The position numbers and the translations under genes are program-made. Shown in pieces: positions 40,846-60,870 of a stretch of DNA of 64,000 bases. This stretch comes from Longispora sp. K20-0274 (GTDB lineage: Bacteria; Actinomycetota; Actinomycetes; Mycobacteriales; Micromonosporaceae). The notes under the pieces are model-generated. The model was not told where the DNA came from. It saw nothing but the letters and a program-made list of their open reading frames with translations, and made no database searches. The stretch lies in assembly GCF_047121295.1 (NCBI RefSeq), contig NZ_CP139447.1, positions 3,298,665 to 3,362,664 on the forward strand. Direction: 5' to 3'. The first letter of the stretch is position 1. Each line of letters starts with the position of its first letter.

Positions 40846-40885
40846 AACCACGCCCCGGGACCACCGGGGCCTCCTGGGGAGAGAC

Positions 40886-41305
40886 ATGGCACAGAAGACG
40901 AGTACGGTGCGGGATCTCGCCTGGCTGCTCGATGACCTGGTGGACCGGGTCGCGCATGCCCGGCAGGCGGCGGTGCTGTCGGCCGACGGCCTGCTGATCG
41001 CGGCGTCCAGTGGGCTCGACCGCGAGGACGCCGACCACCTCTCGGCCGTCGCGGCCGGGTTCCAGAGCCTGGCCCGGGGCGCCGGCCGGCACTTCGGTGG
41101 CGGCTCGGTGCGCCAGACCATCATCGAGATGGACTCGGCCTTCCTGTTCGTGATCGCCGCCGGGCACGGGGCGTGCCTGGCGGTCCTCGGGTCGGAGGAC
41201 GCCGACATCGGCCTCATCGCGTACGAGATGGCGATGCTCGTCGCCCGGGTCGGGCAGTACCTGGCCACCCCGTCGCGTACCTCCGTCATGGCTGCCGAGG
41301 TCTGA
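40886..41305 (+). CDS. cvnB: Roadblock/LC7 domain protein (CvnB)
   Basis: ~140 aa with the typical Roadblock pattern (...AAVLSADGLLIAAS...FLFVIAAGHGACLAVLG...). GGGGAGAG RBS lies upstream. Confidence 0.8.
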   Translation: MAQKTSTVRDLAWLLDDLVDRVAHARQAAVLSADGLLIAASSGLDREDADHLSAVAAGFQSLARGAGRHFGGGSVRQTIIEMDSAFLFVIAAGHGACLAVLGSEDADIGLIAYEMAMLVARVGQYLATPSRTSVMAAEV

Positions 41306-41307
41306 CC

Positions 41308-41661
41308 ATGAACGAATGGCTGGACGAGGATGCCGGGCCGGTCGTCCGCCCGTACGCCATGACCCGTGGCCGGACCCGCCCCTCCACGGGCGAGTTCGAC
41401 CTGATCGCCCTCGTCGTCTCCACCGGTGCGACGGCCGCCGGCCTCGAGCCGGAGCACACGGCGATCCTGGGCCTGTGCGACGCGCCCCTGTCGGTGGCCG
41501 AGATCTCGGCGCACCTGGACCTGCCGGTCGGCATCATCCGGGTGTTCCTGGGCGACCTGCTCACCGCCGGGCTGATCCAGGCCCGTGCGCCGCAGCCGGC
41601 GGCCGAGCTGCCGAGCAGGCGGACCCTCCTGGCGGTGATCGATGGTCTCCGTGCCCTCTGA
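41308..41661 (+). CDS. cvnC: DUF742 protein (CvnC)
   Basis: VRPYAMTRGRTRP...FDLIALV...LSVAEISAHLDLPVGIIRVFLGDLL is the characteristic DUF742 pattern. It starts 3 nt after the cvnB stop. Confidence 0.75.
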   Translation: MNEWLDEDAGPVVRPYAMTRGRTRPSTGEFDLIALVVSTGATAAGLEPEHTAILGLCDAPLSVAEISAHLDLPVGIIRVFLGDLLTAGLIQARAPQPAAELPSRRTLLAVIDGLRAL

Positions 41662-42223
41662 CGCCACCACGCTGCCCACCGCGATCAAGATCCTGGTCGC
41701 GGGCGGGTTCGGCGCGGGCAAGACGACCCTCGTCGGCGCGGTCAGCGAGATCAAGCCGCTGCGCACCGAGGAGACCATCACCGAGGAGAGCGTCGGCATC
41801 GACGACCTGTCCGGGGTGGAACGCAAGGAGACCACGACGGTCGCCATGGACTTCGGCCGGATCACGATCAACCCGGAGCTGGTGCTGTACCTGTTCGGCA
41901 CCCCCGGCCAGGACCGGTTCTGGTTCGTCTGGGACGAGCTCGCGCTCGGCGCCGTCGGTGCCGTCGTGCTGGCCGACACCCGCCGGCTGCCCGGCTGCTT
42001 CCCGTCGATCGACTACTTCGAACGCCGGGGCACCCCGTTCATCGTCGCCGTGAACTGCTTCGACGGCGCCGACCGGCACGACCCGGCCGAGGTGCGCGCG
42101 GCGCTGGACCTGGACCCGGAGGTGCCGGTCGTGCTGTGCGACGCCCGGGTCCGCGCGTCCAGCAAGGAGGTCCTGATCACGCTGGTCGAGCACGTGGTGA
42201 ACTCCACCCCGGCCTACGCGTAG
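41642..42223 (+). CDS. cvnD: ATP/GTP-binding protein, small Ras-like GTPase (CvnD)
   Basis: P-loop GGFGAGKTT, DTPGQ, and NCFD (NKxD-like) motifs. Overlaps the cvnC end. Confidence 0.8.
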   Translation: MVSVPSDATTLPTAIKILVAGGFGAGKTTLVGAVSEIKPLRTEETITEESVGIDDLSGVERKETTTVAMDFGRITINPELVLYLFGTPGQDRFWFVWDELALGAVGAVVLADTRRLPGCFPSIDYFERRGTPFIVAVNCFDGADRHDPAEVRAALDLDPEVPVVLCDARVRASSKEVLITLVEHVVNSTPAYA

Positions 42224-46564: not shown

Positions 46565-47518
46565 ATGTTGAGGACCATCGCAGTCGTGATCATGGACGGG
46601 GTCGCGCCGTTCGAGCTCGGCCTGTTGTGCGAGGTCTTCGGCGTCGACCGCTCCGACGACGGCGTGCCGAGGTTCGACTTCCGGGTGTGCGGCGAGCGGG
46701 CCGGCGAGCCGCTGCGCTCCGGGGTGGGCATGCTCGTCACCCCCGAGCACGGGCTCGACGCGCTCGCCGGCGCGGACCTGGTCGCGGTCCCCGCACACGG
46801 CATCATCGACGACTACCCGCCCGCCGTGCTGGCCGCGCTGCGCGCCGCCGCCGACCGGGGCACCACCCTGGTGTCGGTGTGCAGCGGGGTGTTCGTCCTG
46901 GGCGCCGCCGGCCTGCTCGACGACCGGCCGTGCACCACGCACTGGCGGCACGCGGAGGAGTTGGCCCGCCGGTTCCCGGCCGCCAAGGTCGACGCCGACG
47001 TGCTGTTCGTCGACGACGGCACCCTGGTCACCAGCGCCGGCACGGCGTCGGGCATCGACGCCTGCCTGCACGTCGTCCGCCGCGAGCTCGGCTCCGGGGT
47101 GGCCAACGCCATCGCCCGGCGGATGGTCGTCGCGCCGCAGCGCGAGGGCGGCCAGCGCCAGTTCGTGGAGCTGGCCATCCCCGAGTGCACCGGCGACAGC
47201 CTCCAGCCCCTGCTGGCCTGGATGCTGGAGCACCTGGACACCGAGCACTCCGTGGCCGACCTCGCGCACCGGGCGATGATGTCCGAGCGCACCTTCGCCC
47301 GCCGGTTCGCGGCCGAGACGGGCACCACCCCGGGGCGGTGGATGGCGTTGCAGCGGGTGCTGCACGCCCGCCGGCTGCTGGAGGAGACCCAGCTGTCCGT
47401 CGAGGAGGTCGCGCACGTCTGCGGCTTCGGCACCGCCGCGCTGCTCCGGCACCACTTCCACAAGATCGTCGGGGTGGCGCCGAAGGACTACCGGCGCTCG
47501 TTCGCCAGCACGCCGTAG
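46565..47518 (+). CDS. GlxA-family transcriptional regulator (DJ-1/PfpI domain + AraC-type HTH)
   Basis: N-terminal class I glutamine-amidotransferase-like domain (...VSVCSGVF...) and two C-terminal AraC HTH helices. Confidence 0.8.
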   Translation: MLRTIAVVIMDGVAPFELGLLCEVFGVDRSDDGVPRFDFRVCGERAGEPLRSGVGMLVTPEHGLDALAGADLVAVPAHGIIDDYPPAVLAALRAAADRGTTLVSVCSGVFVLGAAGLLDDRPCTTHWRHAEELARRFPAAKVDADVLFVDDGTLVTSAGTASGIDACLHVVRRELGSGVANAIARRMVVAPQREGGQRQFVELAIPECTGDSLQPLLAWMLEHLDTEHSVADLAHRAMMSERTFARRFAAETGTTPGRWMALQRVLHARRLLEETQLSVEEVAHVCGFGTAALLRHHFHKIVGVAPKDYRRSFASTP

Positions 47519-48534
47519 GCCACCAGGCAGTGCCAGAGCTGCTTGACGTACTGCAGGGTCTCCGCCCGGGTGCCCCACTCCGCCCACAGGTCCGGGTCCG
47601 TGACCACGGACCGGGCCGCGTGGCCGAGCACGGCGGCGTCGAGCACGCCGGACGGTGCGTGGTCGCCGAGGATCCGCGCGGCCAGGGGCCGCATCACCGG
47701 ACCCCGGAATTCGACGGGTACCTCGTCCGCCGTCAACGTGAAGCCGCCGTGCCACTCGACCCCGATCCCGCACCGGTCGGCCAGCACGACCAGGAGCTTC
47801 CCGGTCTCCGTGCCGTCGAACGACGGGTCGAGCACCAGTGCCTCGGCGTCGGCGGCCAGGTCGACGGGCCCGTGCACCTGGGCCTCCACGTAGTCGTCCA
47901 GCGCCCTGCCGGGCGCCTGCGCGGGGTCGACGCCGGACCGCGCGGGCAGGGCCAGCAGGTGGGCCACCGGGTCCACGCCCGGCACGCCCAGCATGGCCTC
48001 CGTCGCGCCCCCGACCAGCCCGGCCAGGACGTCCTCGAACGCGTCGATCGTGCCCAGGTCCGTCGGCCCCGTATGGCTGTCTCCGTGGCAGAACGTGGCC
48101 CGCTCCGACACCGCCGCCCGCAGCCGGACGTGGCACGAGCCGAACCGGGGCGCGGCCCCGTCCGGGTGCCCCATCAGGTCCAGCGCGCCGTAGGTCGGCC
48201 GGTCCGCCACGCGGACGCCCGGGGCCTGGTACGCCCCGCCGAACAGCCGCTCCTCCCAGCGGTCGCGGTCGCCCCCGGGATACGCCGTCAGGCCGCCGTT
48301 GGACACCCCGGTCTCGAACTGGCTGCGGTACCGGCCGTCAGACGCCAGCCCCTCGGCCACGGTCCGCCCGTCGGCGAGCAGCCGGTCGGGGTGGAAGTTG
48401 AGCGTGATCCGGCCGTGGGCGCGGACGGCTGCGAGCAGCGCGGCGGAGTCGGGGAGCGCGCGGTCGCGGCGGACGGTGGAGCGGACGTGGTCGAGGGCCG
48501 CGCGCTGGGCGGCGGTCAGTGGGGTGGGCTGCAC
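47488..48534 (-). CDS. DUF3626 domain protein (unknown function); last gene of the minus-strand lanthipeptide operon
   Basis: Conserved DUF3626-like core (...RITLNFHPDR..., GGAYQAPG...). A GTG at 48534 was chosen; an upstream ATG at 48699 would add a Pro-rich low-complexity extension. Confidence 0.5.
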   Translation of the reverse strand: MQPTPLTAAQRAALDHVRSTVRRDRALPDSAALLAAVRAHGRITLNFHPDRLLADGRTVAEGLASDGRYRSQFETGVSNGGLTAYPGGDRDRWEERLFGGAYQAPGVRVADRPTYGALDLMGHPDGAAPRFGSCHVRLRAAVSERATFCHGDSHTGPTDLGTIDAFEDVLAGLVGGATEAMLGVPGVDPVAHLLALPARSGVDPAQAPGRALDDYVEAQVHGPVDLAADAEALVLDPSFDGTETGKLLVVLADRCGIGVEWHGGFTLTADEVPVEFRGPVMRPLAARILGDHAPSGVLDAAVLGHAARSVVTDPDLWAEWGTRAETLQYVKQLWHCLVAYGVLANERR

Positions 48535-48631
48535 CCGGGAAGTATCGGCGCGGTCCGGTACCCCCGGCAATCGGTTTGTCCGCCGCCCCCCCGGAGCGGG
48601 CAGGGGCGGCCGCCCGCGGCCGGTGGACGGT

Positions 48632-49852
48632 TCAGGTGCCGGCGGTCGCGGGCCGGGCGACGCCGATGCGGACCAGGTCCGTGACCAGCTCGGTCGCATC
48701 GGCGGCGTCGAGTCCGGGCACGAGGTCGGCGGCACACCACGGTTCCGGGTCGTCGGCGGTCAGCAGTGCCGCAACGACGGCGGCGGCCGGCTCCTCGAAC
48801 TCGACGGTGAACGCGCCGAGGTGCAGCCGGAGCCCGCCGCCGTCGAGTGCGGTGACCCCGCAGACCGCTTCGGCGACCGTGCGCACCGGGGTGTCCTCGG
48901 CCAGGCCGGGCAGGATCGCCGCGGTGGCGGCCGGGGTGCGCGGTTCGAGGAAGAACCTCCGGTAGGCGTCGGCCATGACCTCGGCGTCGGCGGCCGGATC
49001 GAGGCTGTTCAGGGCCGCGCGGAGCTGCGCGACCGTCGTGGCGACGGCCCTGGCTCGGAGGCGGGGGTCGGCGCAGAATCCCCACGGGACCTCCGCGCGC
49101 AGCTCTTCGACGGCGTCGAGCCGGGCGAGGAGCTGTGTCGCGATCCAGTGGCCGGTCAGCGCGGGGAAGGCCAGACTCAGGTGCAGTGAGTGCTCGTCGG
49201 TGGCGAACCCGTTGTGCACCCAGCCGCGGGGGATCCACAGCGCGTCCCCGACACGGAGCACGGTCTCCAGTTGGGGGGTGCCGTGGCGCAGTCGGGCCCA
49301 ATCCGCGTCGGAGACCCGCTCGGCGCGGAACGGCTGGTGTTCCAGCGGATCGGTGAGCACCGGGGCGTGCACCTGCCACGTCTTACTGCCGGAGGTCTGC
49401 ACGATCAGGACGGCATGCGTGTCGTGGTGGTGGGCGAAGCCCTGGCTGCCGGCCGGGGTGAGGTAGGCGTTCGCGCCGACCGGCAGGCCGGTCTCCCAGC
49501 TCAGGCGGCGGCACAGGTCGCCCACCGGTGGCCAGGTTCGGTGGAGCGACTCCAGCACCACGGTCGAGCCGTCGCGCAACAGGGTGGTGAGCCGGGCCGG
49601 GCGGACCACGTCGGCGAATCCGGGCTGGACAGGTCTGCCCGACCAGGTGTAGGTGCCGCCGGGCACCCGTCGGCCGTCGGTGACCACGCTGACCATCTGC
49701 CGGTGCAGCGACCCGTGGTCGAGCAGCGCGTCGACGTCCGCGAGACAGAACGGCGGCGGGGCCGGCAGCGACCAGATGGCCGGACGCCGGGGCGGAGCGG
49801 CGAGAAAGCCGGCGGGATCGGGTACGAGCCCCGACAGGGCGGTCAGGCGCAT
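48632..49852 (-). CDS. JmjC/cupin-4 family 2-oxoglutarate/Fe(II)-type oxygenase (putative peptide hydroxylase)
   Basis: HxD...H iron facial triad candidates (FAHHHDTHAV ... WVHNGF) in a cupin fold. GAGGAG RBS lies 6 nt upstream. The start overlaps the MFS stop by 10 nt. Confidence 0.7.
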   Translation of the reverse strand: MRLTALSGLVPDPAGFLAAPPRRPAIWSLPAPPPFCLADVDALLDHGSLHRQMVSVVTDGRRVPGGTYTWSGRPVQPGFADVVRPARLTTLLRDGSTVVLESLHRTWPPVGDLCRRLSWETGLPVGANAYLTPAGSQGFAHHHDTHAVLIVQTSGSKTWQVHAPVLTDPLEHQPFRAERVSDADWARLRHGTPQLETVLRVGDALWIPRGWVHNGFATDEHSLHLSLAFPALTGHWIATQLLARLDAVEELRAEVPWGFCADPRLRARAVATTVAQLRAALNSLDPAADAEVMADAYRRFFLEPRTPAATAAILPGLAEDTPVRTVAEAVCGVTALDGGGLRLHLGAFTVEFEEPAAAVVAALLTADDPEPWCAADLVPGLDAADATELVTDLVRIGVARPATAGT

Positions 49853-51087
49853 CGTCTGCTCCTCAGGGGTTGTCCGGCGTGCGCCGGTGCGGGTGCGGTC
49901 AACTGGGCGCGCACGGGACCCACGGTGCAGAGCGCGGCGCACAGGCCCAGACAGGCCGCCATCGTGCCGTAGCCGGCCTGCGGGCCGAACCGTTGCAGCA
50001 GCCAGCCCATGGTGACGAAGGCGAACGGGTAGAGGACGGAGCCGATCAGGGTCATCGAACTCTGGGCGCGGCCCATCAGGTCGTCGGGCACCAGTCGGTA
50101 GGTGTGCGCGGTGAGCGCGATGACGAGGACCGGGCCCATCGCGGACAACAGGGCCAGCCCGACGGCCGTCGGGACCGGGTACGGCGCCACCGCCACGAAT
50201 GTCGTCACGGCGACGGCGCCGACGCCGCTGGTCAGCACGGCGGTGTACGGCCGGTCGGTGACCAGCCGGGGGGCCAGGGCCGCGCCGACCAGTGCTCCGA
50301 CGGAGACCGTGCCGGCCAGTACCCCGATGAGGGTCGGTGTGGTGCCGTGTGCCCGCAGCATCGGCACCAGGCCGAAGAACGCACCGGCGGTGGCGAAGTT
50401 CAGCACCGACGACCAGACGGTGACGACGCGCAGGAACGGCTGACCGGCGACGAACCGCAGGCCGGTGCCGATGTCGGCGAGCATGCCACCGGCCGAACGC
50501 GGCGCCCCGCCGCCGAGGTCGCCGCCGATCCCGGCCACCAGCACCGCGCACGCGACGAACGTCGCCACGTCGAGGACGAAGGGAGCCCACGGCCACAGCG
50601 CGAACAGCGCCCCGCCGATCGCCGGTCCGAGGAGTCCGGCGGCGTAGGTCCGGGTCTCGTTGAGCGACACCGCCCGGGTGAGCTGGTCCGACCCGACCAG
50701 CGCGCGGAGCGCCCCGCCCAGCGACGGGTTGTACACGGAACTGACGAGGCCGTCGAGACCCGCGATCAGGAGCAATGGCCACACCGCGCGCGCCCCGGTG
50801 GCCAGCATGACCGCCGGGCCGGCCCACAGCACCGCCTTGACGAGGTCGACCCGGATCATGACGGTGCGCCGGCGCCACCGGTCGGCGAGGACGCCGGCCG
50901 GCAGCCGGGCCACGTTCAGCACGACGAGCCTGACGGTGGCCAGACCACCGGCCGCGACCGCCGAGCCGGTCAGGTGCAGGAGCAACAGCGGCAGGCAGAT
51001 GTCGCTGATCCGGGAGCCGAGCGCCGACAGCGCCTGGCCCCACCAGAACCGACCGAAGTCGCGGTTGCCCCGCAGCAGGCCGGTCAT
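49843..51087 (-). CDS. MFS transporter (putative exporter)
   Basis: 12-TM major facilitator pattern. The ATG overlaps the stop of the upstream flavoprotein gene as ATGA. Confidence 0.75.
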   Translation of the reverse strand: MTGLLRGNRDFGRFWWGQALSALGSRISDICLPLLLLHLTGSAVAAGGLATVRLVVLNVARLPAGVLADRWRRRTVMIRVDLVKAVLWAGPAVMLATGARAVWPLLLIAGLDGLVSSVYNPSLGGALRALVGSDQLTRAVSLNETRTYAAGLLGPAIGGALFALWPWAPFVLDVATFVACAVLVAGIGGDLGGGAPRSAGGMLADIGTGLRFVAGQPFLRVVTVWSSVLNFATAGAFFGLVPMLRAHGTTPTLIGVLAGTVSVGALVGAALAPRLVTDRPYTAVLTSGVGAVAVTTFVAVAPYPVPTAVGLALLSAMGPVLVIALTAHTYRLVPDDLMGRAQSSMTLIGSVLYPFAFVTMGWLLQRFGPQAGYGTMAACLGLCAALCTVGPVRAQLTAPAPAHAGQPLRSRRCA

Positions 51088-51629
51088 CCGGCTGCCCGCC
51101 ACTGCGCCTCGACGATCTTCGCGGTGCCCGAGGGGCCGGGCATGGCATGGCTGTCGCCGAACTCGCCGTTCCACAGGGTCAGGACGGTGGTCGGTTCCGG
51201 GGAGACCACCACGACCCCGCGCTCCCTCAGGCCGCGCACGGCGGCCTGCGTGGTCCGGGCCCGCCACATCGTCGGGTGCATGTGGGGGAAGAGAACGACC
51301 GGGGCGGGCGTGGCCAGCACGGCCGTGAGCGCGGGCGAGTTGGCCAGCCCCAACGCGGCGGACACCACGAAATTGGCCGTGGCGGGGGCGACGACCAGCA
51401 GCCGGGCGGTGTGCGCGAACGCGACCGGGTTGAATCCGGTCGCGTTCGGCTCGACCACCTCGTCGGCCAGCAATCGGATAGCGGTCGGCTGCACGAACGT
51501 CAGGGCGGCCGAGGTGAGCAGGACGGTGGTGGGCACCGGGAGCCGCCGCCGCCAGGCGGTCAGGTGCGCGGGCAGTTCGAGGGCCGCGCTGGCGCCGGTG
51601 CACACCACCGCCAACCGGTCAGCGGGCAT
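51084..51629 (-). CDS. lanD: HFCD-family flavoprotein, peptidyl-cysteine decarboxylase (LanD/EpiD/MicD-like)
   Basis: Flavoprotein fold (LAVVCTGASAALELP..., VVAPATANFVVSAALGLANS, PAPVVLFPHMHPTMW) typical of homo-oligomeric flavin-containing Cys decarboxylases. The start overlaps the lanKC stop by 11 nt. Confidence 0.75.
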   Translation of the reverse strand: MPADRLAVVCTGASAALELPAHLTAWRRRLPVPTTVLLTSAALTFVQPTAIRLLADEVVEPNATGFNPVAFAHTARLLVVAPATANFVVSAALGLANSPALTAVLATPAPVVLFPHMHPTMWRARTTQAAVRGLRERGVVVVSPEPTTVLTLWNGEFGDSHAMPGPSGTAKIVEAQWRAAG

Positions 51630-54204
51630 GGCCGACCCCGACGCCCGACCAGCCGTACCGCAGGTCCAGGGTCCGACCGCCGGTGGCCAGGCGGCGCAGC
51701 GCCAGGGCGATGCCCGCCGAGCCGGTCGCGAGGTCGCAGCTCAGCCGCAGCAGCCCGTCGCCGGGGAACGCCACGCCGTCGGGTCCGGGTCGGCGCAGCG
51801 CCACGATCTGCCCGACGAGGCCGGCCAGAGCCTCGTCGACGGCCGGGTCGCCGGGCAGCACGTCCCGGCAGTCCAGCAGGAACTCCACCAGGCCGGTCAT
51901 CCCGGAGAACAGCCCCGGATTGACGGTGAACGGCATGGCCACCCCGCGCACGATCGAGCCGAGGGTCGTCGTGAGCCGTTCGTCGCCGGTGACCGCGAGC
52001 CGCCGGGCCACGGCCATGCCGACGCCCGCTCCGCCGCGCAGGAGGTACGGCTCGTACGCCGTGGCCCGCGCGTACGCGCCAAAGCCCAGGCCGCCGTTGC
52101 GCCGGAGCCGGCCGCGTTCGAGGTCGAAGGCCAGCGCCCGGCCGCCGAGTCGCAGCAGGCGGTCGTCGCCGGTCCGCGCGCCCAGTTCGGTGAGGAAGCC
52201 CGACACCCCGGACGATCCGTGCAGGTAGCCGAGCGGGTGCCGCGCGGTGTCCGTGGGCCACCACAGTCCCGTGCCGTCATCCTCGGCCTCGCCGGTCAGC
52301 CGGGCGGCGACCTCCGTGGCCAGGTCCGTCCAGGAGCCGTCGCCGGTCGCGTCGGCCGCCGCGAGCAGGCCGAGCCCGACGCCGGCGCGTCCCGTGGCCA
52401 CCCCGGCCGGTAGCTTGCCGTCGACCGCCCGGCGCGCCGCGTCGCGCAACAGTGCCGTGCCCCGGTCGGTCTCGCCGGCCTCGAGGATGGTGACGGCGAT
52501 GCCCGTGGCGCCGACGTACAGTCCGGCGGGAAGCGCGGGGTGCTCGTCGAGCCGGGCCAGCAGCCAGTCGAGTGCCACCGGATCGGCCACGCCATCGAGG
52601 AGCAGCAGGGCGCGCAGGACGCCGGCGGCTCCGTAGGCCACCGACAGCGGATTCGTGCGGAACAGCTCCGGGTGGGCGGGGAAGAGCCGGTCGGCGCGGT
52701 GGGGGGTCGCCGCCGATCGCAGGTGCCGGACGACCCCGTCGACCAGCTCGGGTGGCGTGGGCGCCGGGCCGTCGTCGGCGGCGACGCCGGGGGCACCGCG
52801 CTCCAGGACGGCCAGCAGGTCCCCGAGCGGGCGGTCCAGCGCGGCGGCGGTGTGCCGCAGGGTGCGCCCGAACACGCCCGGGTCCAGGCCCAGCAGCGCG
52901 TTGCGGGGAACGACGCAGGCCGCCTCGACGGCGGCGACGGAGAACCGCAGGTAGTCGTGGTCCACGCCCCATGCCGGTGAACCGACCTCCGGCGCGAACC
53001 CCAAGGTCCGGGGGTACCCGGCGGGGTCGTCTCCGGCGGGACGGCAAGCCTCGAAGTCGACCAGCCGCACCGTGTCGTCCTCGTCGACGAGGATGTTGGT
53101 GAGGGACAGGTCGCCGTGCACGACGCCATGGTCCGCGCAGGTCCGCACGGCGGCGGCGAGCTGCGTGAGCAGACCGTCGACCCTCCGGTTGTACGCGGCG
53201 ACCGTGTCGCGATCGGTGAATCCGCGCGCGAAGGGGTGGTGCCGCGCCAGCCACACCTGCAGAGTGATCCCGGGGACCAGGCTCTGCACGAGGAACGTGT
53301 GCTCCCACAGCCGGGTGAGCTCCACGGCCGCCGGCGCGACCCCGGTGCCGGCCAGGTCCAGCAGGAAGGCGTGCTCCCGGTGCAGCCGTTCGACCGCGTC
53401 GGACCCGTCGGGGGCGAACGCCGTGTGCGGCCGGGCCTCCTTGAGTACGACGTCGCGACCGTCGGGCCCGGTGGCCAGGTACACCCCGCCGGCTGTGGAG
53501 TGGCGCAGGACGGACCGGACCCGGTACCTGGTCAGCAGGTCACCACCGGTCGGTTCCGTCCCCGGCGGGAAGGGGTCCTCGGTGACCCACGGCGGCAGCG
53601 TGAACCGGGGGGTGCGCGCATCCGTCCACGCGGTCCCGTCCGGGCCGGTCACCGTGGCCGTGACGTGCCCGTCGGCATCGACGCCGGCCGGCCGGCGCAC
53701 CGTGCCGTACCGGTACTGCACCGTGCCGCTGCCCGGGTAGCGCCGGTCGGTCAGGATGTGCGGCCCCGCGAACCCGTCGAGGCGGTGGGCCAGCCGGTCG
53801 GCGAGCTCGCGGGCGTGCCCGACCGAGGTGGGGTACACCGTCACGGCCTTTCCCGCCCCGCCCCTCGACCACCAGCGGCTGAGCTGGGCGACGGCGAGCT
53901 CCGTGGACCGCACGCACTTGAAGCTGAACGGGCCCTCGAGGTACTCGTCGACGACCGCGTCCACCACGGCCAGCACGTCGGCGGGCCGGCAGGACACGTG
54001 CAGTTTCCAGCCGTGCGCCGGCAACTGTGACATGGGCTGGGCCAGGCACCGGACCCAGATCCCCATGGCCGAGACCGCGCCGGTGTCACCGAGGCGGTCG
54101 CGCACCAGGTCACGCAGGTCGGCGGTGTCGGGCCCGTGGTCGATCCGCTCGTAGTACAGCGGATCGGCGATCGCGTAGGCCCGCAACGATTCGATGATGG
54201 ACAC
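51619..54204 (-). CDS. lanKC: Class III lanthipeptide synthetase LanKC (N-terminal lyase, central Ser/Thr kinase, C-terminal zinc-ligand-free LanC-like cyclase)
   Basis: Lyase-domain N-terminus (...GWKLHVSCRP...) and a kinase core (VVHGDLSLTNILV ... VDFE). The C-terminal cyclase domain has GYLHGSSG and NPGLFSGMTG where LanC/LanM enzymes carry WCHG and CHG, so the Cys-Cys-His zinc site is absent. A GTG at 54204 is preceded by GGAGGA. The track shows a 1294-aa ORF whose first ~430 aa are antisense low-complexity artefact. Confidence 0.85.
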   Translation of the reverse strand: MSIIESLRAYAIADPLYYERIDHGPDTADLRDLVRDRLGDTGAVSAMGIWVRCLAQPMSQLPAHGWKLHVSCRPADVLAVVDAVVDEYLEGPFSFKCVRSTELAVAQLSRWWSRGGAGKAVTVYPTSVGHARELADRLAHRLDGFAGPHILTDRRYPGSGTVQYRYGTVRRPAGVDADGHVTATVTGPDGTAWTDARTPRFTLPPWVTEDPFPPGTEPTGGDLLTRYRVRSVLRHSTAGGVYLATGPDGRDVVLKEARPHTAFAPDGSDAVERLHREHAFLLDLAGTGVAPAAVELTRLWEHTFLVQSLVPGITLQVWLARHHPFARGFTDRDTVAAYNRRVDGLLTQLAAAVRTCADHGVVHGDLSLTNILVDEDDTVRLVDFEACRPAGDDPAGYPRTLGFAPEVGSPAWGVDHDYLRFSVAAVEAACVVPRNALLGLDPGVFGRTLRHTAAALDRPLGDLLAVLERGAPGVAADDGPAPTPPELVDGVVRHLRSAATPHRADRLFPAHPELFRTNPLSVAYGAAGVLRALLLLDGVADPVALDWLLARLDEHPALPAGLYVGATGIAVTILEAGETDRGTALLRDAARRAVDGKLPAGVATGRAGVGLGLLAAADATGDGSWTDLATEVAARLTGEAEDDGTGLWWPTDTARHPLGYLHGSSGVSGFLTELGARTGDDRLLRLGGRALAFDLERGRLRRNGGLGFGAYARATAYEPYLLRGGAGVGMAVARRLAVTGDERLTTTLGSIVRGVAMPFTVNPGLFSGMTGLVEFLLDCRDVLPGDPAVDEALAGLVGQIVALRRPGPDGVAFPGDGLLRLSCDLATGSAGIALALRRLATGGRTLDLRYGWSGVGVGHAR

Positions 54205-54221
54205 GCTTCCTCCCCTGGGGT

Positions 54222-54246
54222 GGGGCCCGGAGCGGATCCGGGCCCC
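54222..54246 (-). promoter_or_regulatory. Stem-loop (10-bp GC stem GGGGCCCGGA/TCCGGGCCCC, 5-nt loop) between precursor gene and lanKC; candidate attenuator/processing site
   Basis: Perfect inverted repeat seen in the 55-nt spacer between the precursor stop and the lanKC start. No U-tract follows it. Confidence 0.4.
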
Positions 54247-54259
54247 GTGAGCGGTCGGA

Positions 54260-54358
54260 CTAGCAGCCGTAGCTGACGCCGCTGCCGTCGGTGTCGGGCG
54301 AGACGTACTCGGCCGTCTCGTCGTTCTCGATGACCTGCAGGTCCAGAACCTCTGCCAT
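54260..54358 (-). CDS. lanA: Class III lanthipeptide precursor peptide, 32 aa: MAEVLDLQVIENDETAEYVSPDTDGSGVSYGC
   Basis: This ORF is absent from the supplied track because it is shorter than 60 aa. AAGGAG RBS lies 6 nt upstream of the ATG. The leader carries the class III (I/L)(L/F)(D/E)LQ recognition motif as VLDLQ. The core ends in S-x-x-S-x-x-C with a C-terminal Cys, a labionin/avionin-type motif. It lies immediately upstream of lanKC on the same strand. Confidence 0.75.
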   Translation of the reverse strand: MAEVLDLQVIENDETAEYVSPDTDGSGVSYGC

Positions 54359-54436
54359 GACGATCTCCTTCGGTGATGTCGGGAGCCGAGGTGTTCGGCC
54401 CCGGCGGACTCGGGCTCGCCGAGCCACGGACAACAG

Positions 54437-54467
54437 CTCACCAGCGGATATCGACCCGCCGCTATGG
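54437..54467 (-). promoter_or_regulatory. Candidate sigma70-like promoter for the precursor operon (TTGCCG - 18 nt - CGATAT on minus strand)
   Basis: Hexamer-like elements seen ~90 nt upstream of the precursor ATG in the divergent intergenic region. Weak, unverified. Confidence 0.2.
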
Positions 54468-54550
54468 GTATCGGCAATGCGGGGGTCCGGCCCTCGGCGC
54501 CGGGTGGCGGCGGTGACCCGCCGACCCGGGAATCTGGGTGCTGAGCACGC

Positions 54551-57500
54551 ATGCGCGCCGGCCGGACAGCGGGCATGCTGTCGTGCATGGACGGTGACGG
54601 GCGCGCGGGGACGGAGCGGTGCTGGTGGGCGCGCGGGCTGACCCTGACCGAACGGCCGACGCCGGCCCCCGGGCGGGTCGTCGCCGGGGACGCCGACCGG
54701 GCGGCCCGCAGGCTGGCCCGGTGGCGCACGGTGTTCCCGACCGGCGAGGCGTTCGGTGCCCGGCTCGCCGCGGCCGGCATCGACGAGAATGTCCTGGCGC
54801 TGCTGCTGGCCGAGGACGCCACCTCGCTCGCCGGCCGGGTCGACCGGCCCGACTGGGCCGGCTTCGCCGAACGGGCCGCCCAGCTGGCCCGGCCACCGAC
54901 CGGGCGGGAATTCACCTGGGAGGACGGGTTCGGCGCCATCGTCGGCCCGTTCGCGGAGCTGGCGGCCCGTGAACTGCTGGCCGCCGAGCCGGGACTGCGC
55001 GACCTGCGGGCCGGCTTCACCGCCCAGACCAGGGGGCTGCTGACGCGCCTGGCCCGCCGGACACTGGTCCTGGAGCTCAACGTGTACCGGGTGTCCGGCC
55101 GCCTCGACGGGGCCATGCCCCGTGACCGGTTCGCCAGCTTCGTGCGCCAGCTGTGCACCAGGGAGGGACTCACCGCGCTGATCGAGGAGTACGCGGTGCT
55201 GGCCCGGCTGCTGGCCCAGGCGTGCCTGCAGAACGTGACCGCCTGGGTGGAGCTGTACGGAAGGTTCACCCGGGACCGCCCCGCCATCGTCGCCGACCTG
55301 CTGGGCGCCGTCGAACCAGGTCCGTTGGTGGAGATCGCCTCCGGCGCCGGTGACCGGCACCGGGGCGGCCGGTCCGTGGCGGTGCTGAGGTTCGCCGACG
55401 GCGCGCGGGTCGTGTACAAACCCCGACCGGTGACCGCGCACGCCCTGTTCAACTGTGCCGTGCGCTGGCTCAACGCGCGGATGCCGGGGCCGGCCCTCCC
55501 CACGCTGGCTCTGCTGTCGCGACCGTCCCACGGCTGGGTGGAGTTCGCGGCCCACGCGCCGTGCCGGGACCGCGACGGGGTCGACCGGTTCTACCGCAGG
55601 CAGGGCGCGACCCTGGCCCTGCTGCACGCTCTGGACGCCACCGACATCCACCACGAGAACCTCGTGGCCCGTGGCGACGAGCCGGTGCTGGTGGACCTCG
55701 AGACCCTGCTGCATCCGACCCTGCCGGTCCCCGGACCGCGCGCCACGGACCCGGCGGCCCGGGCGATGGACTCCTCGGTGTACCGAACGGCCCTGCTGTC
55801 CCTGCCGGTGGTCGGCGACCACGGCATGATCGACCTGTCCGGCCTCGGCGCGGACAAGGGGGCTTTGAGCCCGCTGGACGGGGTCGGCTGGGGCGCGCCC
55901 GGTACCGACGAGATGCGGCTGGTCCGCCGGCAGGAGACCTTCGAGGGCTCGGACAACCGTCCCCGGCTCGACGGACGCGACGCCGATCCGGCGGCGTACA
56001 CCGCCAGCCTGCTCTCCGGTTTCCGCGACGCGTACCAGGCCATCGCCTCGGGTCGGGCCGAACTCGTCGGTCCCGACGGGCCGTTGGCCGCATCCGGGGG
56101 TGCCGACCTGCGGGTGGTGGTCCGACCCACCCGGGTGTACGCGACGCTGCTCGACGAGTCGACCCACCCCGACGTGCTGCGCGACGCCCTCGACCGGGAC
56201 CGGCTGCTGGACACACTGTGGGCGGACTCGACCGGCGCCGCGCTGTGGTGGCAGGTGGCCGGCGCGGAGATCGCCGGCCTGTGGGCGGGCGACATTCCGC
56301 TGTTCGACACCAGGTCGGACTCCCTCGCCCTGGCTTCGGGCGGGTTCACCCTCGACGGGGCACTCGACGCCACCGGCGTGCGCCGGGTCTCCGCCAAGCT
56401 CGCCGCGCTGGGCGGGCCGGACCAGTACGACCAGGAATGGATCATCCAGGCCGCGCTCGCCACCCGCGCACCGCTGCCCGAGCACCGGCCGGGGCGGTCC
56501 GGCGCCCATCCGCACGCGACGACGGTGCCCGACCGCGACCGGCTTCTCGCCTCGGCCTGCGGCATCGCCGACCAGTTGGTCGCGATGGCCTTCGAGGACG
56601 ACCACCACGCGAACTGGCTGGGCCTGGAGCCCGTCGACGACCGGCACTGGATGGTGCTGCCTCAGGGCGCGGGCCTGGCCCACGGGTACTGTGGCACCGC
56701 GCTCCTGCTCGCCCAGCTGGCGGGGATCACCGGGACCGCCCGGTACGCGCGGCTCGCCCGCAGGGCGGTGTGCCCGATTCCGAACCTGCTCGACCACCTC
56801 GCCCGGCACCCCGAACAGGCCGCGGCGGTCGGCTGCGGCGGATTCGCCGGCTTCGGCGGCATCGCCTACGCCCTCAGCCACCTGGCGGCGCTCCTGGACG
56901 ACGGGGAGGTCGCCGGCTGGGTGCCGGGCGCGGTCCGGCTGGTCGCCGGGGCCGCCCACGGCAGCGGGCCGGGCGTGCTGACCGGGGCCGCCGGCGGGGT
57001 GGCCGCCATGCTCGCCGTGCACGCGACAACGGGTTCGGACCTGGCCTGGGACGCGGCGCGGACCTGTGCCGACGCGGTACTGGCAGCCGATCCGGCCGGG
57101 TTGCCCGCCGGATTCGGCACCGGACTCGCGGGGATGGGCTGGGCCCTCGCCCGGTTCGGGGCCTCCGGCGGTGGCACCCGCTACGCCGACGCCGGCCGCG
57201 CGCTGCTGGCCGCGAGCCGTCCGGCGGCGGACGATCCCAGCTGGTGCCACGGCCTGCCAGGCCTGGCGCTCGCCCTGGCCGACCTGGGGGACACACCGGC
57301 GGGCGGGACCGTGGACCGGGCGGTCGGCGCCGTGGCGGCCCGGCCGCCGCTGGACGACCACAGCCTGTGCCACGGCGAGCTCGGCGGCCTGGAGCTGCTG
57401 GTGGAGGCCGCCGCCGGCGGGCACCACGCCGCCAGGGCCGGGCGGATCCCCCGGGCGGGCCTGCTGCTGGCGGCCCTGGACCGCGTCGGCCCTCAGTGCG

Positions 57501-57673
57501 CCACCCCGGGCCTGGTGCCCAGCCCGGGTCTGCTCACCGGGCTGGCCGGGATCGGCTACGGACTGCTGCGGCTGGGCTTCCCCGACCGGACGCCCAGCGT
57601 CCTCCTGCTCAGACCACCCCACGCGCCCGCGACTCGGCCGGGCGCGGTGTCCCTACGACAAGGAGCGACATGA
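54551..57673 (+). CDS. lanM: Class II lanthipeptide synthetase LanM (N-terminal DUF4135 dehydratase domain + C-terminal LanC-like cyclase with intact zinc ligands)
   Basis: Dehydratase/kinase-like motifs DIHHENLVARGDEPVLVDLETLL, and cyclase motifs LAHGYCG, SWCHGLPG, SLCHGELGG (Cys-Cys-His zinc site). Start uncertain; ATG 54551, 54575 and 54587 are all possible. Confidence 0.8.
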   Translation: MRAGRTAGMLSCMDGDGRAGTERCWWARGLTLTERPTPAPGRVVAGDADRAARRLARWRTVFPTGEAFGARLAAAGIDENVLALLLAEDATSLAGRVDRPDWAGFAERAAQLARPPTGREFTWEDGFGAIVGPFAELAARELLAAEPGLRDLRAGFTAQTRGLLTRLARRTLVLELNVYRVSGRLDGAMPRDRFASFVRQLCTREGLTALIEEYAVLARLLAQACLQNVTAWVELYGRFTRDRPAIVADLLGAVEPGPLVEIASGAGDRHRGGRSVAVLRFADGARVVYKPRPVTAHALFNCAVRWLNARMPGPALPTLALLSRPSHGWVEFAAHAPCRDRDGVDRFYRRQGATLALLHALDATDIHHENLVARGDEPVLVDLETLLHPTLPVPGPRATDPAARAMDSSVYRTALLSLPVVGDHGMIDLSGLGADKGALSPLDGVGWGAPGTDEMRLVRRQETFEGSDNRPRLDGRDADPAAYTASLLSGFRDAYQAIASGRAELVGPDGPLAASGGADLRVVVRPTRVYATLLDESTHPDVLRDALDRDRLLDTLWADSTGAALWWQVAGAEIAGLWAGDIPLFDTRSDSLALASGGFTLDGALDATGVRRVSAKLAALGGPDQYDQEWIIQAALATRAPLPEHRPGRSGAHPHATTVPDRDRLLASACGIADQLVAMAFEDDHHANWLGLEPVDDRHWMVLPQGAGLAHGYCGTALLLAQLAGITGTARYARLARRAVCPIPNLLDHLARHPEQAAAVGCGGFAGFGGIAYALSHLAALLDDGEVAGWVPGAVRLVAGAAHGSGPGVLTGAAGGVAAMLAVHATTGSDLAWDAARTCADAVLAADPAGLPAGFGTGLAGMGWALARFGASGGGTRYADAGRALLAASRPAADDPSWCHGLPGLALALADLGDTPAGGTVDRAVGAVAARPPLDDHSLCHGELGGLELLVEAAAGGHHAARAGRIPRAGLLLAALDRVGPQCATPGLVPSPGLLTGLAGIGYGLLRLGFPDRTPSVLLLRPPHAPATRPGAVSLRQGAT

Positions 57674-57867
57674 CCGACACAGATCTGATCAGGTCCTGGA
57701 AGGACCCGGAGTCCCGCGACGAGCCGGCCGCCGACCATCCGGTGGGGGAGATCCGACCCAGGATCGACCTGCGCGCGGGCTCCCGAGTCCTGGCGCTGGT
57801 CGGCATGGCCGGCGTCCTGTTCGCGTCGCTGCCGGGCACCGAGACGACGACCTCGCTGACCGGGTGA
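57670..57867 (+). CDS. 65-aa peptide with class II (LanM-type) leader motif but no cysteine: MTDTDLIRSWKDPESRDEPAADHPVGEIRPRIDLRAGSRVLALVGMAGVLFASLPGTETTTSLTG
   Basis: The ATG overlaps the lanM stop (ATGA) and has AAGGAG 5 nt upstream. The N-terminus carries the (I/L)xxWK(D/N)PxxR leader motif seen in mersacidin/lichenicidin-alpha-type LanA peptides. The C-terminal half is hydrophobic with a TETTTS tail and contains no Cys. Confidence 0.5.
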   Translation: MTDTDLIRSWKDPESRDEPAADHPVGEIRPRIDLRAGSRVLALVGMAGVLFASLPGTETTTSLTG

Positions 57868-57942
57868 GCCGCCGCCGGCCTCCGGGGCCCGCCCGGGCGG
57901 CGGCCCATAGATACTGATCATCATGGACGGTAATCTCGGACC

Positions 57943-60870
57943 ATGCAGCTGACGTCTCCGGTGCTCATCGGCCGCAGTTCCGAGATCGCCGCGCTGGAGG
58001 CCGGGATCGAGGCCGCCCGCACCGGTTCCGGGCGGGCGGCCTTCCTGGTCGGGGAGGCGGGGGTCGGCAAGTCCCGGCTGGCCGCCGAGTGCGCCTACCG
58101 GGCGTTCGCCGCCGGCATGCCCGTGCTGCGCGGCCGGTGCAGTTCCACCGGGGTGCGGATGCCGCTGCGTCCCATCACGGAGGCGCTACTCTCCCTGTTC
58201 CGCACCGGAGGTCCGCCGAGGAACCCGGAACTGGAACCGTACCGGCCCGCCCTCGCCCGGCTCGTGCCCGACTGGCGGGACAAGGGGGCGCCGGACGAGC
58301 CCGGGGCTTTGATCGAGACCGCCGAGGCGGTGCTGCGCCTGCTCGCGGTGGTCGGCGCGGACGGCGGCTGCGTTCTCGTGCTGGAGGACCTGCACGACGC
58401 CGACGCCGAGACACTGGCGGTGCTGGAGTATCTGGTCGACAACGTCGCCGGCCTGCGCGTGTTCCTGCTCGGCGCCCTGCGCTCGGCACCCGGCCCGGCC
58501 CTCGACCTGGCCAGGGCCACCGGGCGACGGCGGACGGCGGTCCTCGCCGAACTCGCCGGGCTGACCGATGAGCAGGTGCGACAGATGGCGGCGGCGTGCC
58601 TGTCCGTCCCCGTCGACGAGCTGTCCGGTCCGGTCGCCGACCGGCTCGTCCGGTACGGCGACGGGAACCCGTTCGTCGTCGAGGAACTCCTCGGCGGCAT
58701 GGTCGCGGCGAACCTGCTGCGCCCCTCGACCGACGGGTGGCGGGTGTTCGGCGACCTGACCCTGGACGTTCCGACCACCGTGGTGCGCAGCGTGACCCTG
58801 CGCGTCGACGGCCTCGGCCCGCAGGGCGCCGAGCTGTTGCACGTCGCCGCCGTGCTCGGCCGGCGGTTCACGCTGTCGGAACTGCGGACCGTGACCGGCC
58901 TCGACGACCGCGGCCTGCTGGGGCACCTGCGCGCCGGGGTCAACGCCCAACTGGTATCGCCGAGCGGACCCGCTCCCGACTGCTACGAGTTCCGCCATGC
59001 GCTCACCGTCGAGGCGCTGCTCAGCTCGATCGGGCCCGCGGAGAGGGCGGCCATCGCCCGGCGGGCCGCCGACGCGCTCGAGGCCGCGCACCCCGGGCAG
59101 CCCGGCGACTGGTGTCAACGACTCGCCGTGCTGCGCCAGTCCGCCGGCGATCCGGTGGCGGCCGGCCTGCTGCTCGTCCGTTCCGGCCGGGCGGCGCTCG
59201 CCTCCGGCGCGGTCGCGTCGGCGGTGGACCTGCTCGAACGGGCCCAGGGCCTCGCCCCGGAGATGGCCCCCGAGCAGCGGGCCGACGTCCTCGAGGCGTT
59301 GTTGTACGCGCTCGCCGAGGCCGGCCAGCTCGACCGGGCCCAGACGGTGCTGGCCACGGCACCCGTCGCCGGGCCTGGAGCCCTCGACCGGGTCAGGGGC
59401 GCCGCGCTGCGGGCCCGGCTGGCCTGGGTGGCGGTGACCGCGGGGCGGATGGCCGACGCCGCGATCCACCTCGCGGTGGCCCGGCAGCTGGCCGGACCCG
59501 GACCCGGGCCGCAGGTCGCCGCCGCCATCGACATCGTCGCGGCCCGGCTGACGTTCTCGGGCAGGGACGGCACCCGGGGGCTCGACCGGGTCGCGGAGGC
59601 CGAGGAACTGGCCCGCCGGGCCGCCGATGCCGCGGAGTCGGCCGGGCTGCCCGTGGTGGCCTGCCAGTCCTGGCAGTTCCTCGCCCTGCTCGCCCGGCGG
59701 CGTGGCATCGACGCCTCCGACAGCTGTGTCCATCGGCTGCTCGCGGTGGCGGAGGAGCACTCGCTACCGGTCTGGTACGCCAACGGCCTGCTCTGGCTGG
59801 GGATCAACGAGTTCCTCCGCACGGCGGAATCCAGCCACCTCGAGCGGGCCCGTCAGGCCACGCTCGGTCTCGGACGGATCGCGCTGACCCACACGGCCGA
59901 GGCGACGCTCGCGATGCACGCCGTGTTCCGGGCCGACTTCGCGACGGCCCGCCAACTCGCCGACTCCTGTGCCGACGCCAGCGCCCGGCTGCGCGACGTG
60001 GACAACCACCAGTACGCGGTGCTGGCCCGGGCCGCGCTCGCCGCGCACCAGGGCCGGCGCCGGGAGATGGACACCGAACTGGCCGAGTTCCGCGACTGGC
60101 AGGGCGAACAGTCGATGCTCATGCCGTTGGTCTTCGGCCGGTGCAGGGCCGTCTGCGCGCTCCTGGAGGAGAAACGGGGCGAGGCGATGGCCGAGCTCGA
60201 CCGCGGGGCTGCCTGGGAGGACCAGCACCCGAACGTGTTCCACCTCGACGGCAGGTACGGGCTCCGCCCGCTGCTCGGTGTCCTCGCCGGCCGGGTGACG
60301 GCGTCCGAGCACGCGAGCCTGGCCGCCGAGCCCGCCGCCCAGCTGCGGTGGAACCGGCAGTTCGTCCTGCTCGCGAGGGCGGTGCTGCTCGGCACGGCCG
60401 GCGACGCGTCGGCGGCGGCGGAGGCGGTCGTCGAGGCGCGCGCGGAGGCGGCGCCGTTTCCGACGACCCATCACCTCGGACTGCGGTTGGTCGCGGAGGC
60501 CGCGCTCGCCGACGGTTGGGGCGAACCGGTCGCCTGGCTCCGCACGGCCGAGGGGTACTTCCACGGTGCGGGAATCCCCGCGGTGGCCGGGGCGTGCCGC
60601 GCGTTGCTCCGGCGGGCCGGCGCGAACGTGGGCCAGCGCCGGGCCGGGATCGAGGAGGTTCCCGTCGCGGTCCGCAGACAGGGGATCACCCTCAGGGAGT
60701 ACCAGGTCCTGCAACTTCTCGTGGCCCGGCCCAGCAACCAGGACATCGCCCAGCGGTTGTTCATCTCTCCCCGGACGGTGGAGAAGCACATCGCCAGCCT
60801 GATCGCGAAGACCCACCGCCCCGACCGCGCGGCACTGAGCGAGTACGCGGCGGACCTGTCGGCGACCTGA
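57943..60870 (+). CDS. LAL-family transcriptional regulator (N-terminal AAA ATPase, TPR-like middle, C-terminal LuxR HTH)
   Basis: Walker A GEAGVGKS, Walker B VLVLEDLHDAD, and a C-terminal LuxR HTH (LREYQVLQLLVARPSNQDIAQRLFISPRTVEKHIASL). Confidence 0.85.
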   Translation: MQLTSPVLIGRSSEIAALEAGIEAARTGSGRAAFLVGEAGVGKSRLAAECAYRAFAAGMPVLRGRCSSTGVRMPLRPITEALLSLFRTGGPPRNPELEPYRPALARLVPDWRDKGAPDEPGALIETAEAVLRLLAVVGADGGCVLVLEDLHDADAETLAVLEYLVDNVAGLRVFLLGALRSAPGPALDLARATGRRRTAVLAELAGLTDEQVRQMAAACLSVPVDELSGPVADRLVRYGDGNPFVVEELLGGMVAANLLRPSTDGWRVFGDLTLDVPTTVVRSVTLRVDGLGPQGAELLHVAAVLGRRFTLSELRTVTGLDDRGLLGHLRAGVNAQLVSPSGPAPDCYEFRHALTVEALLSSIGPAERAAIARRAADALEAAHPGQPGDWCQRLAVLRQSAGDPVAAGLLLVRSGRAALASGAVASAVDLLERAQGLAPEMAPEQRADVLEALLYALAEAGQLDRAQTVLATAPVAGPGALDRVRGAALRARLAWVAVTAGRMADAAIHLAVARQLAGPGPGPQVAAAIDIVAARLTFSGRDGTRGLDRVAEAEELARRAADAAESAGLPVVACQSWQFLALLARRRGIDASDSCVHRLLAVAEEHSLPVWYANGLLWLGINEFLRTAESSHLERARQATLGLGRIALTHTAEATLAMHAVFRADFATARQLADSCADASARLRDVDNHQYAVLARAALAAHQGRRREMDTELAEFRDWQGEQSMLMPLVFGRCRAVCALLEEKRGEAMAELDRGAAWEDQHPNVFHLDGRYGLRPLLGVLAGRVTASEHASLAAEPAAQLRWNRQFVLLARAVLLGTAGDASAAAEAVVEARAEAAPFPTTHHLGLRLVAEAALADGWGEPVAWLRTAEGYFHGAGIPAVAGACRALLRRAGANVGQRRAGIEEVPVAVRRQGITLREYQVLQLLVARPSNQDIAQRLFISPRTVEKHIASLIAKTHRPDRAALSEYAADLSAT

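Follow-up and report, generated by a model that had tools for sequence, protein, structure and literature searches.

We analysed a 64-kb stretch of the Longispora sp. K20-0274 genome (~74% GC; hereafter the window) in which two lanthipeptide-type operons stand back-to-back over one divergent intergenic region: a class III system on the minus strand, built around the synthetase LanKC, and a class II-type system on the plus strand, built around the synthetase LanM and followed by a LAL-family regulator gene. Because this is high-GC actinomycete DNA, genes were called by third-position GC content (GC3); proteins were assigned with Pfam and NCBIfam for all genes and with PDB matches for LanM and the LanD-like protein. 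A first-pass annotation of the stretch had described this arrangement, and its gene content is borne out by the GC3 frames, Pfam, and NCBIfam, every family assignment being in agreement with it. Its count of a single Cys-containing precursor stands as well: the class III precursor, A1, has a Cys, and the precursor-like peptide that we add behind lanM, A2, has none. The two gene sets and the region between them are:

48632..49852, minus strand: JmjC/cupin-4 oxygenase
49843..51087, minus strand: major facilitator superfamily (MFS) transporter
51084..51629, minus strand: LanD-like HFCD flavoprotein
51619..54204, minus strand: LanKC, class III synthetase (lyase-kinase-cyclase)
54260..54358, minus strand: class III precursor A1, 32 amino acids, MAEVLDLQVIENDETAEYVSPDTDGSGVSYGC
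54359..54586: divergent intergenic (promoter) region between A1 and lanM, 228 bp
54587..57673, plus strand: LanM, class II-type synthetase
57670..57867, plus strand: LanM-associated peptide A2, 65 amino acids, Cys-free, MTDTDLIRSWKDPESRDEPAADHPVGEIRPRIDLRAGSRVLALVGMAGVLFASLPGTETTTSLTG
57943..60870, plus strand: LAL-family regulator, 975 amino acids

The minus-strand genes are packed as a tight operon. LanKC carries RamC_N, Pkinase, and LANC_like domains and is assigned to class III (NF038151, 688.7 bits, cutoff 575), its score against the class IV model (NF038150, 434.4 bits) lying below the cutoff of 650. The gene for the LanD-like protein overlaps the lanKC stop codon; its product matches the Pfam Flavoprotein family (PF02441, 1.4e-13), has the expected fold with a PASANT-like motif in the form PATANF, and finds its closest solved relatives in 7cfu, MrsD, 6jls, and EpiD. 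The start of the MFS gene overlaps the LanD stop (ATGA), and its product (Pfam MFS_1/MFS_3, NCBIfam TIGR00900) is likely the exporter of the class III product. The JmjC gene in turn starts 10 nt inside the end of the MFS gene and encodes a protein with a JmjC_2 match (1.7e-23) and an HHD metal motif, predicted to be the tailoring hydroxylase of the cassette. A1 itself is preceded by a ribosome-binding site (GAAGGAG) 7 nt upstream, has a GC3 of 0.94, and shows the features of a class III precursor, with V4-L7-I10 and LDLQ in its N-terminal MAEVLDLQVI and a core ending in SGVSYGC; its match to the NCBIfam lanthi_III_b model is weak (17.8, below the cutoff of 30).

Relatives of the class III cassette were collected by a LanKC scan with one genome per species, which gave nine loci, and by a metagenome scan, which gave two more (related loci are numbered with the prefix L below). 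These 11 loci comprise seven from Kribbella, one from Micromonospora SH-82, one from an Actinocatenispora metagenome-assembled genome, and two metagenome contigs. LanKC, LanD, MFS, and JmjC occur in the same order in all 11, at 51-78% identity; the JmjC oxygenase (51-62% identity) and the MFS transporter are kept in every one. All 12 related A1 precursors combine an LDLQ-type leader with SxxSxxC directly before the stop codon and a free C-terminal Cys, and 10 of the 12 end in TDGSG[VI]S[YF]xC (L001-L007, L009, and L018 among the related loci). One metagenome contig (L017; Ga0326721_10000673, 1-510) encodes two tandem A1 paralogues, with the ends SNVSYNC and SSISYNC, which retain only SxxSxxC; more than one precursor per class III cassette is therefore possible. 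Ten of the 11 loci include the upstream stretch in which A1 and LanM would be expected, and of the roughly nine informative relatives K. deserti (L002) alone has a LanM adjoining the cassette. A1 is essentially the same with or without an adjacent LanM. The five-gene Kribbella cassette is flanked by housekeeping genes, an aminotransferase/aldehyde dehydrogenase pair on one side and DUF1844-infC-rplT on the other, with no regulator nearby. The class III cassette (A1-LanKC-LanD-MFS-JmjC) is thus complete on its own.

The avionin scaffold of the lipolanthines is defined by an SxxSxxC motif at the very C-terminus in combination with LanKC and LanD (PMC7540663). In the known lipolanthine and avionin systems (MicA-MicKC-MicD of Microbacterium arborescens, nocavionin, and goadvionin), as in the window, LanKC stands beside an HFCD flavoprotein LanD, and the precursor likewise combines a leader of the class III type with an SxxSxxC end whose C-terminal Cys is free (PMC7540663). 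The window cassette differs from these systems in its conserved JmjC oxygenase and MFS exporter and in a LanD-like protein that lacks the canonical catalytic His. We found no polyketide synthase, nonribosomal peptide synthetase, or fatty-acid genes in the window or beside the Kribbella cassettes, and outside LanKC, LanM, and the LAL the window contains no coding open reading frame (ORF) longer than ~800 amino acids. Since the lipidation machinery is missing, the product would not be a lipolanthine.

On the plus strand, LanM carries DUF4135 and LANC_like domains (TIGR03897, 671.7 bits, cutoff 304) and is 100% identical to a 1028-amino-acid NCBI product of Longispora sp. K20-0274. We place its start at 54587 and not at the ATG at 54551, because the former matches the NCBI product; the ATG at 54551 lies inside a palindrome that ends 33 bp before 54587, as it does in two Kribbella loci (L015 and L016). 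The divergent region reported by the first-pass annotation is therefore real, and its extent is 228 bp (54359-54586) instead of the ~190 bp (54359-54550) given there. This region has no match to a sigma-70 consensus, and Rfam recognizes no family in it or elsewhere in the locus. LanM matches LicM2 (6st5, E = 1e-83) and CylM, and its WCHG and CHG motifs align with the zinc-ligand motifs YWCHG and LCHG of LicM2; both motifs are present in 104 of 120 homologues.

The A2 gene overlaps the lanM stop codon (ATGA), has a GC3 of 0.91, and is labelled a hypothetical protein by NCBI. None of its 65 residues is a Cys, seven of the last 20 are Ser or Thr, and it contains a hydrophobic segment with a Kyte-Doolittle peak of 2.4. 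The TIGR03898 model gives it 16.3 bits against a cutoff of 23.5, the match covering leader residues 5-19 only. A frameshift hiding a Cys-containing core was considered and rejected, as GC3 is 0.94 in the core half and Cys-free homologues occur in several genera. We also rejected the possibility that A2 is an actinopeptin (the DUF6229 peptides, PMC13509491), since Pfam gives no match for it. The Pfam hits for the genes between 38.5 and 63.7 kb include neither an ABC transporter nor a C39 peptidase, and no LanT-type transporter/protease or immunity gene dedicated to the class II system was seen there. Compared with the mersacidin/lichenicidin type of class II system (TIGR03898; LicM2), the window LanM is homologous with intact zinc ligands, and the IRSWKDP at the N-terminus of the A2 leader is similar; the differences are a core without Cys, and hence without intrapeptide lanthionine, and the lack of a LanT transporter/protease, immunity genes, and LanRK. 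We take IRSWKDP to resemble the mersacidin leader.

The LAL has an N-terminal AAA_16 domain (1e-24) with the Walker A motif GEAGVGKS at residue 36, a weak TPR_19 match, and a C-terminal GerE/LuxR helix-turn-helix (HTH; GerE 3e-10). The LAL (large ATP-binding LuxR) family comprises pathway-specific activators of actinomycete clusters, such as PikD, with MalT as its prototype. The window LAL is like PikD and MalT in length (~975 amino acids), its AAA_16 Walker A, TPR-like repeats, GerE HTH, and its place at a cluster edge; it differs from them in being inherited together with LanM and a short peptide as a three- to four-gene unit and in that its candidate operator also occurs at a second, unlinked operon for a peptide that is made on ribosomes and modified after translation (a RiPP).

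LanM homologues form a large family (47-56% identity) in Kitasatospora, Longispora, Micromonospora, Kribbella, and other genera. In every context read, LanM is followed by one or two ORFs of 55-80 amino acids and then by a LAL. The LanM-peptide-LAL unit was found at:

L010: Kitasatospora MAP12-15
L011: L. fulva
L012: S. malaysiense
L013: Longispora sp.
L014: Micromonospora
L015 and L016: Kribbella
L002: K. deserti

The LALs of these loci are 51-61% identical to the window LAL in L010-L014 and 44% in L002, and the LanMs are 50-54% identical; LAL identity tracks LanM identity, so the unit is co-inherited. The peptides were recovered as a family by an exhaustive phmmer search, a word-index protein search having matched the query only. 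A2-type peptides lie behind LanM in L010-L016 (P0122-P0130 among them) and share a leader of the form L-[IV]-R-S-W-K-D-P-x-x-R...H-P-A-G-x-I...R-R-A-x-L-L-A-G, with Ala or Val in some at the position after H-P. The core is a variable Ala/Gly/Leu-rich hydrophobic stretch followed by a Thr/Ser-rich tail, and most cores are without Cys. A2, its leader kept family-wide, is a cognate peptide that LanM has for its own and that co-evolves with it. The LanM-peptide-LAL cassettes of L010-L016 were likewise found to lack transporter, protease, and immunity genes. Within 8 kb, LanKC is absent from L011, L013, L014, L015, and L016, which amounts to three of five independent LanM-side contexts (L011/L013, L014, and L015/L016). 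The LanM-A2-LAL cassette is complete on its own. Longispora sp. K20-0274 also encodes a second LanM of the same family (P0013), 52% identical.

What connects the two cassettes is a palindrome. Alignment of lanM upstream regions gave the consensus GGAATATGGG-N7-CCCATGTGGG. A scan for ATATGGG-N5-9-CCCATAT at a threshold of at least 12/14, covering the window and 16 loci (375 kb), gave 24 hits, which correspond to about 20 separate sites; Markov-shuffled sequence would be expected to give 0.55. All sites are at lanM or A1 promoters. The lanM-proximal site lies ~33 bp from the start, L015 and L016 have a second site upstream of lanM that faces a divergent luciferase-like gene, and the A1-side sites lie 100-180 bp upstream of the A1 ATG, where they are paired, 60 bp apart, in six Kribbella loci. 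Beside LanM-peptide-LAL, the motif occurs in five genera: reaching 12/14 in L002, L010, L012, and L014-L016, and as a degenerate 10/14 copy in the window; L011 and L013 have a visibly related variant, ATGCGGGGG-N5-CCCCCAT, which does not score in the scan. In Kribbella the two promoters carry the motif even when the cassettes are far apart on the chromosome. Kribbella sp. NBC_01505 has its class III cassette at 1.05 Mb and LanM-A2a-A2b-LAL at 2.78 Mb (1.7 Mb apart), Kribbella sp. NPDC005582 has them 1.4 Mb apart, and in both the motif is found at both promoters. The window has two sites:

54462..54485: distal remnant of the operator, CTATGGGTATCGGCAATGCGGGGG, made up of a canonical left half-site and, after it, a half-site of the Longispora type
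54532..54554: operator-like palindrome on the lanM-proximal side, ATCTGGG-N9-CGCATGC, degenerate relative to ATATGGG-N8/9-CCCATAT

Nowhere else in the 64 kb does the motif reach 10/14, the score of the lanM-proximal site, and the 33 bp between the end of this site and the lanM start is precisely the spacing seen in L015 and L016. In the distal site, 12 of 14 bases are those of the left half and spacer of the L014 operator, and L011 and L013 have exactly the same AATGCGGGGG. The distal site is placed like the A1-proximal site of Kribbella, 104-127 bp upstream of the A1 ATG.

We infer that the LAL binds this palindrome, because it is the only DNA-binding protein common to all LanM-peptide-LAL cassettes and because the motif-linked LALs share the recognition helix ISPRTVEKHVASLxxKT, which is altered in the LALs of two motif-free loci. 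In these loci (L007 and L018) there is no LanM, a LAL gene of another subtype (39-40% identity) diverges directly from the class III cassette, and the main operator is absent; it is also absent upstream of the LanKC genes in L010 and L012, so the link is not universal for all LanKC neighbours. The LAL/A1 intergenic regions of the two loci with the other LAL subtype (L007:9340-9830 and L018:3000-3300) contain a different palindrome, CTACCAG-N3-GGTAG.

On this evidence we favour, at somewhat better than even odds, a reading in which the locus consists of two autonomous RiPP cassettes placed head-to-head, with a shared palindromic operator and a LAL that probably co-activates both operons. LanKC would recognize the LDLQ leader and dehydrate the two Ser of the C-terminal SxxSxxC, and the predicted joint outcome of LanKC and the LanD-like flavoprotein is a bicyclic C-terminus of the labionin/avionin type; the JmjC oxygenase would probably hydroxylate a core residue and the MFS protein export the product. 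LanM would recognize the A2 leader (L-I/V-R-S-W-K-D-P...H-P-A/V-G-E-I) and dehydrate the Ser/Thr-rich tail of the hydrophobic core, giving a peptide that may carry dehydroalanine and dehydrobutyrine (Dha/Dhb) without lanthionine rings. The LAL would be the second cassette's own regulator, its HTH dimer most likely binding ATATGGG-N8/9-CCCATAT, and would probably co-activate both operons from the 228-bp divergent region. The shared divergent promoter and LAL proposed by the first-pass annotation are in this way supported and extended to a probable regulon, an operator-like palindrome being present at both types of promoter. One LAL may thereby control a LanM/dehydropeptide cassette and an avionin-type class III cassette whether they are adjacent or megabases apart, a link that can be tested, and LAL-driven activation of the locus would be a practical route to both products.

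The palindrome could instead be the site of another conserved actinomycete regulator, developmental or global, with both cassettes belonging to a wider regulon. Kribbella class III cassettes carry the motif without a nearby regulator gene, and L015 and L016 have an extra copy (L015:7479-7501 and L016:7641-7663) ~60 bp 5' of divergent luciferase-like monooxygenase and aldehyde dehydrogenase genes, so even a LAL regulon may exceed the two RiPP cassettes; the assignment of the site to the LAL is itself deduced from sequence comparison. Against such a regulator stand the company the motif keeps with LanM-peptide-LAL in five genera, where the LAL is the sole shared DNA-binding protein, and the loss of the motif in L007 and L018, where the LAL is of a different subtype with an altered recognition helix. 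We consider this alternative rather unlikely.

Independent biosynthetic gene clusters (BGCs) brought together by chance or by genomic-island clustering, with the LAL controlling lanM-A2 only and no functional link to the class III operon, would account for the finding that each cassette stands alone in most genomes sampled. It would also fit the low count of class III relatives with an adjoining LanM (only 1 of ~9) and an A1-side operator copy in the window that is merely a half-site. It does not explain why the same palindrome is found at A1 and lanM promoters, even with the cassettes more than 1 Mb apart, nor why LanM-peptide-LAL adjoins LanKC genes in four genera (the window, K. deserti L002, Kitasatospora L010, and S. 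malaysiense L012), nor the recurrence of LanM and LanKC clusters reported in the literature (PMC7268733). We judge a chance origin of the arrangement unlikely. The first-pass annotation had proposed comparing the co-occurrence of the modules in relatives; that comparison shows the genes to be independently distributed, but adjacency merely by chance sits poorly with the shared cis-element and the neighbourhood in four genera.

A further observation concerns one of these neighbourhoods. In Streptomyces malaysiense (L012:11942-15959), two LanKC-like genes, the first without a kinase hit, lie 3' of LanM-A2-LAL with a class III precursor, MSKVLSLQNMETAQADEELAVEGGSWAFCSERSYFLCA, between them.

The pairing of a LanM with a LanKC is not new in itself. 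Walker et al. 2020 (PMC7268733), citing Zhang et al. 2015 (AEM 81:4339), describe previously identified BGCs with both LanM and LanKC in which the LanM-associated peptides are without Cys, a description that the window fits exactly; the view of the first-pass annotation that such co-localization is atypical was accordingly overstated. LanM and LanKC clusters with Cys-free peptides have appeared in genome surveys since 2015 and were set aside as 'not lanthipeptides', and we found no report of their role or of the chemistry of the LanM/Cys-free-peptide/LAL cassette; in what we could find, neither the shared palindrome nor the separated arrangement seen in Kribbella has been described. With the pairing already on record, the specific, testable points are the link through the operator, the active site of LanD, and the LanM substrate without Cys. 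The locus raises a lipid-free avionin-type peptide with a JmjC enzyme, an HFCD protein without the canonical His, and a zinc-intact LanM with a Cys-free substrate.

Several observations count against the reading of two autonomous, LAL-linked cassettes. The zinc ligands of LanM are intact though A2 has no Cys, which hints at a thiol partner and leaves room for some cross-talk. In Kitasatospora sp. MAP12-15 (L010:3691-8001), a LanKC (32% identity, no LanD) and a SARP regulator lie directly upstream of LanM-A2-LAL with no recognizable class III precursor in the locus, which is hard to fit with strictly separate pathways. Both operator copies in the window are degenerate (a 10/14 site and a half-site), so regulation in Longispora sp. 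K20-0274 may be weakened or altered, and another conserved regulator could bind the palindrome in place of the LAL. The active site of the LanD-like protein is also unusual. His67 of EpiD is essential for HFCD catalysis (PMC8549060); the position of EpiD His67 and MrsD His75 is a Pro (NPV) in all 10 aligned homologues (the window and the L001-L009 set), and the position of EpiD Asn117 and MrsD Asn125 is a His in the window alone, an Asp in L007, and an Asn in most other homologues. Given the Pro in all homologues and the His in the window protein, avionin formation and decarboxylation are uncertain. An invariant His in an FPH motif may stand in for the missing catalytic residue, and the predicted function of the protein is that of a peptidyl-Cys decarboxylase whose active site is atypical.

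The first two of these points bear on the idea of a truly hybrid pathway, with LanM and LanKC/LanD cooperating on shared substrates, for example by addition of the class III thiol to dehydrated A2 or by LanKC processing of A2. The recurrence of LanM/LanKC adjacency speaks for it too. However, the single Cys of A1 lies within a conserved SxxSxxC, and cassettes far from any LanM have it unchanged. In L010 and L012, the LanKC that adjoins LanM shares only 32-35% identity with that of the window and is without LanD, so no specific enzyme pairing is conserved, and LanM-A2-LAL does without a LanKC within 8 kb in three of the five independent contexts sampled from the LanM side. We regard a hybrid pathway as improbable. 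Because each cassette occurs alone elsewhere, joint maturation by two enzymes is unlikely, and the suggestion of the first-pass annotation that the locus might represent such maturation or biosynthetic cross-talk is not supported: the cassettes are complete and conserved separately, A1 is unchanged where LanM is absent, and LanM has a peptide of its own.

A more speculative reading, to which we give a low probability, treats LanM-A2-LAL as a peptide-based regulatory switch and not as an antibiotic pathway. Because the cassette has no transporter, protease, or immunity gene, dehydrated A2 would on this reading never be exported; the hydrophobic, Cys-free peptide would be sensed by the LAL, as a ligand of its sensor domain or as a signal tethered to the membrane, and the LAL would then activate class III operons, adjacent or unlinked, through the operator. 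If this were so, a RiPP enzyme-peptide pair would serve as the built-in signal generator of a transcription factor.

Within the class III operon, a further element lies between A1 and lanKC:

54222..54246, minus strand: GC-rich stem-loop between the A1 gene and lanKC, perfect 10-bp inverted repeat

Its predicted RNA fold has -31.2 kcal/mol (z = -1.9), and stronger stem-loops occur at the same position in three related loci (L002:9905-10000, L006:9935-10000, and L007:9905-10000; z = -2.4 to -3.7). The presence of a stem-loop here in every locus checked, with its position kept and its sequence not, points to a role in attenuation or processing by which the hairpin would set the ratio of precursor to enzyme. 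A GC-rich hairpin after A2 (57868-57942) was dropped as a candidate, since it folds no better than shuffled sequence (z = -0.7).

The gene next to the class III cassette is:

47488..48735, minus strand: DUF3626 protein (PF12294, E = 1e-111), 3' of the JmjC gene on the same strand

Its longest ORF overlaps the 3' end of the JmjC gene by ~100 nt, with alternative candidate starts at 48699, 48570, and 48534. None of the related class III loci contains a homologue, and the gene is probably outside the cassette. The wider flanks are unrelated to the locus: AraC/DJ-1, GGDEF, and conservon genes lie upstream, and DUF6194, alcohol dehydrogenase, and esterase genes downstream. The conservon-like operon (38524-42223, plus strand), itself unrelated to the lanthipeptide locus, encodes a NIT/HAMP/HATPase sensor, a Roadblock/LC7 protein, and an ATP_bind_1 GTPase.

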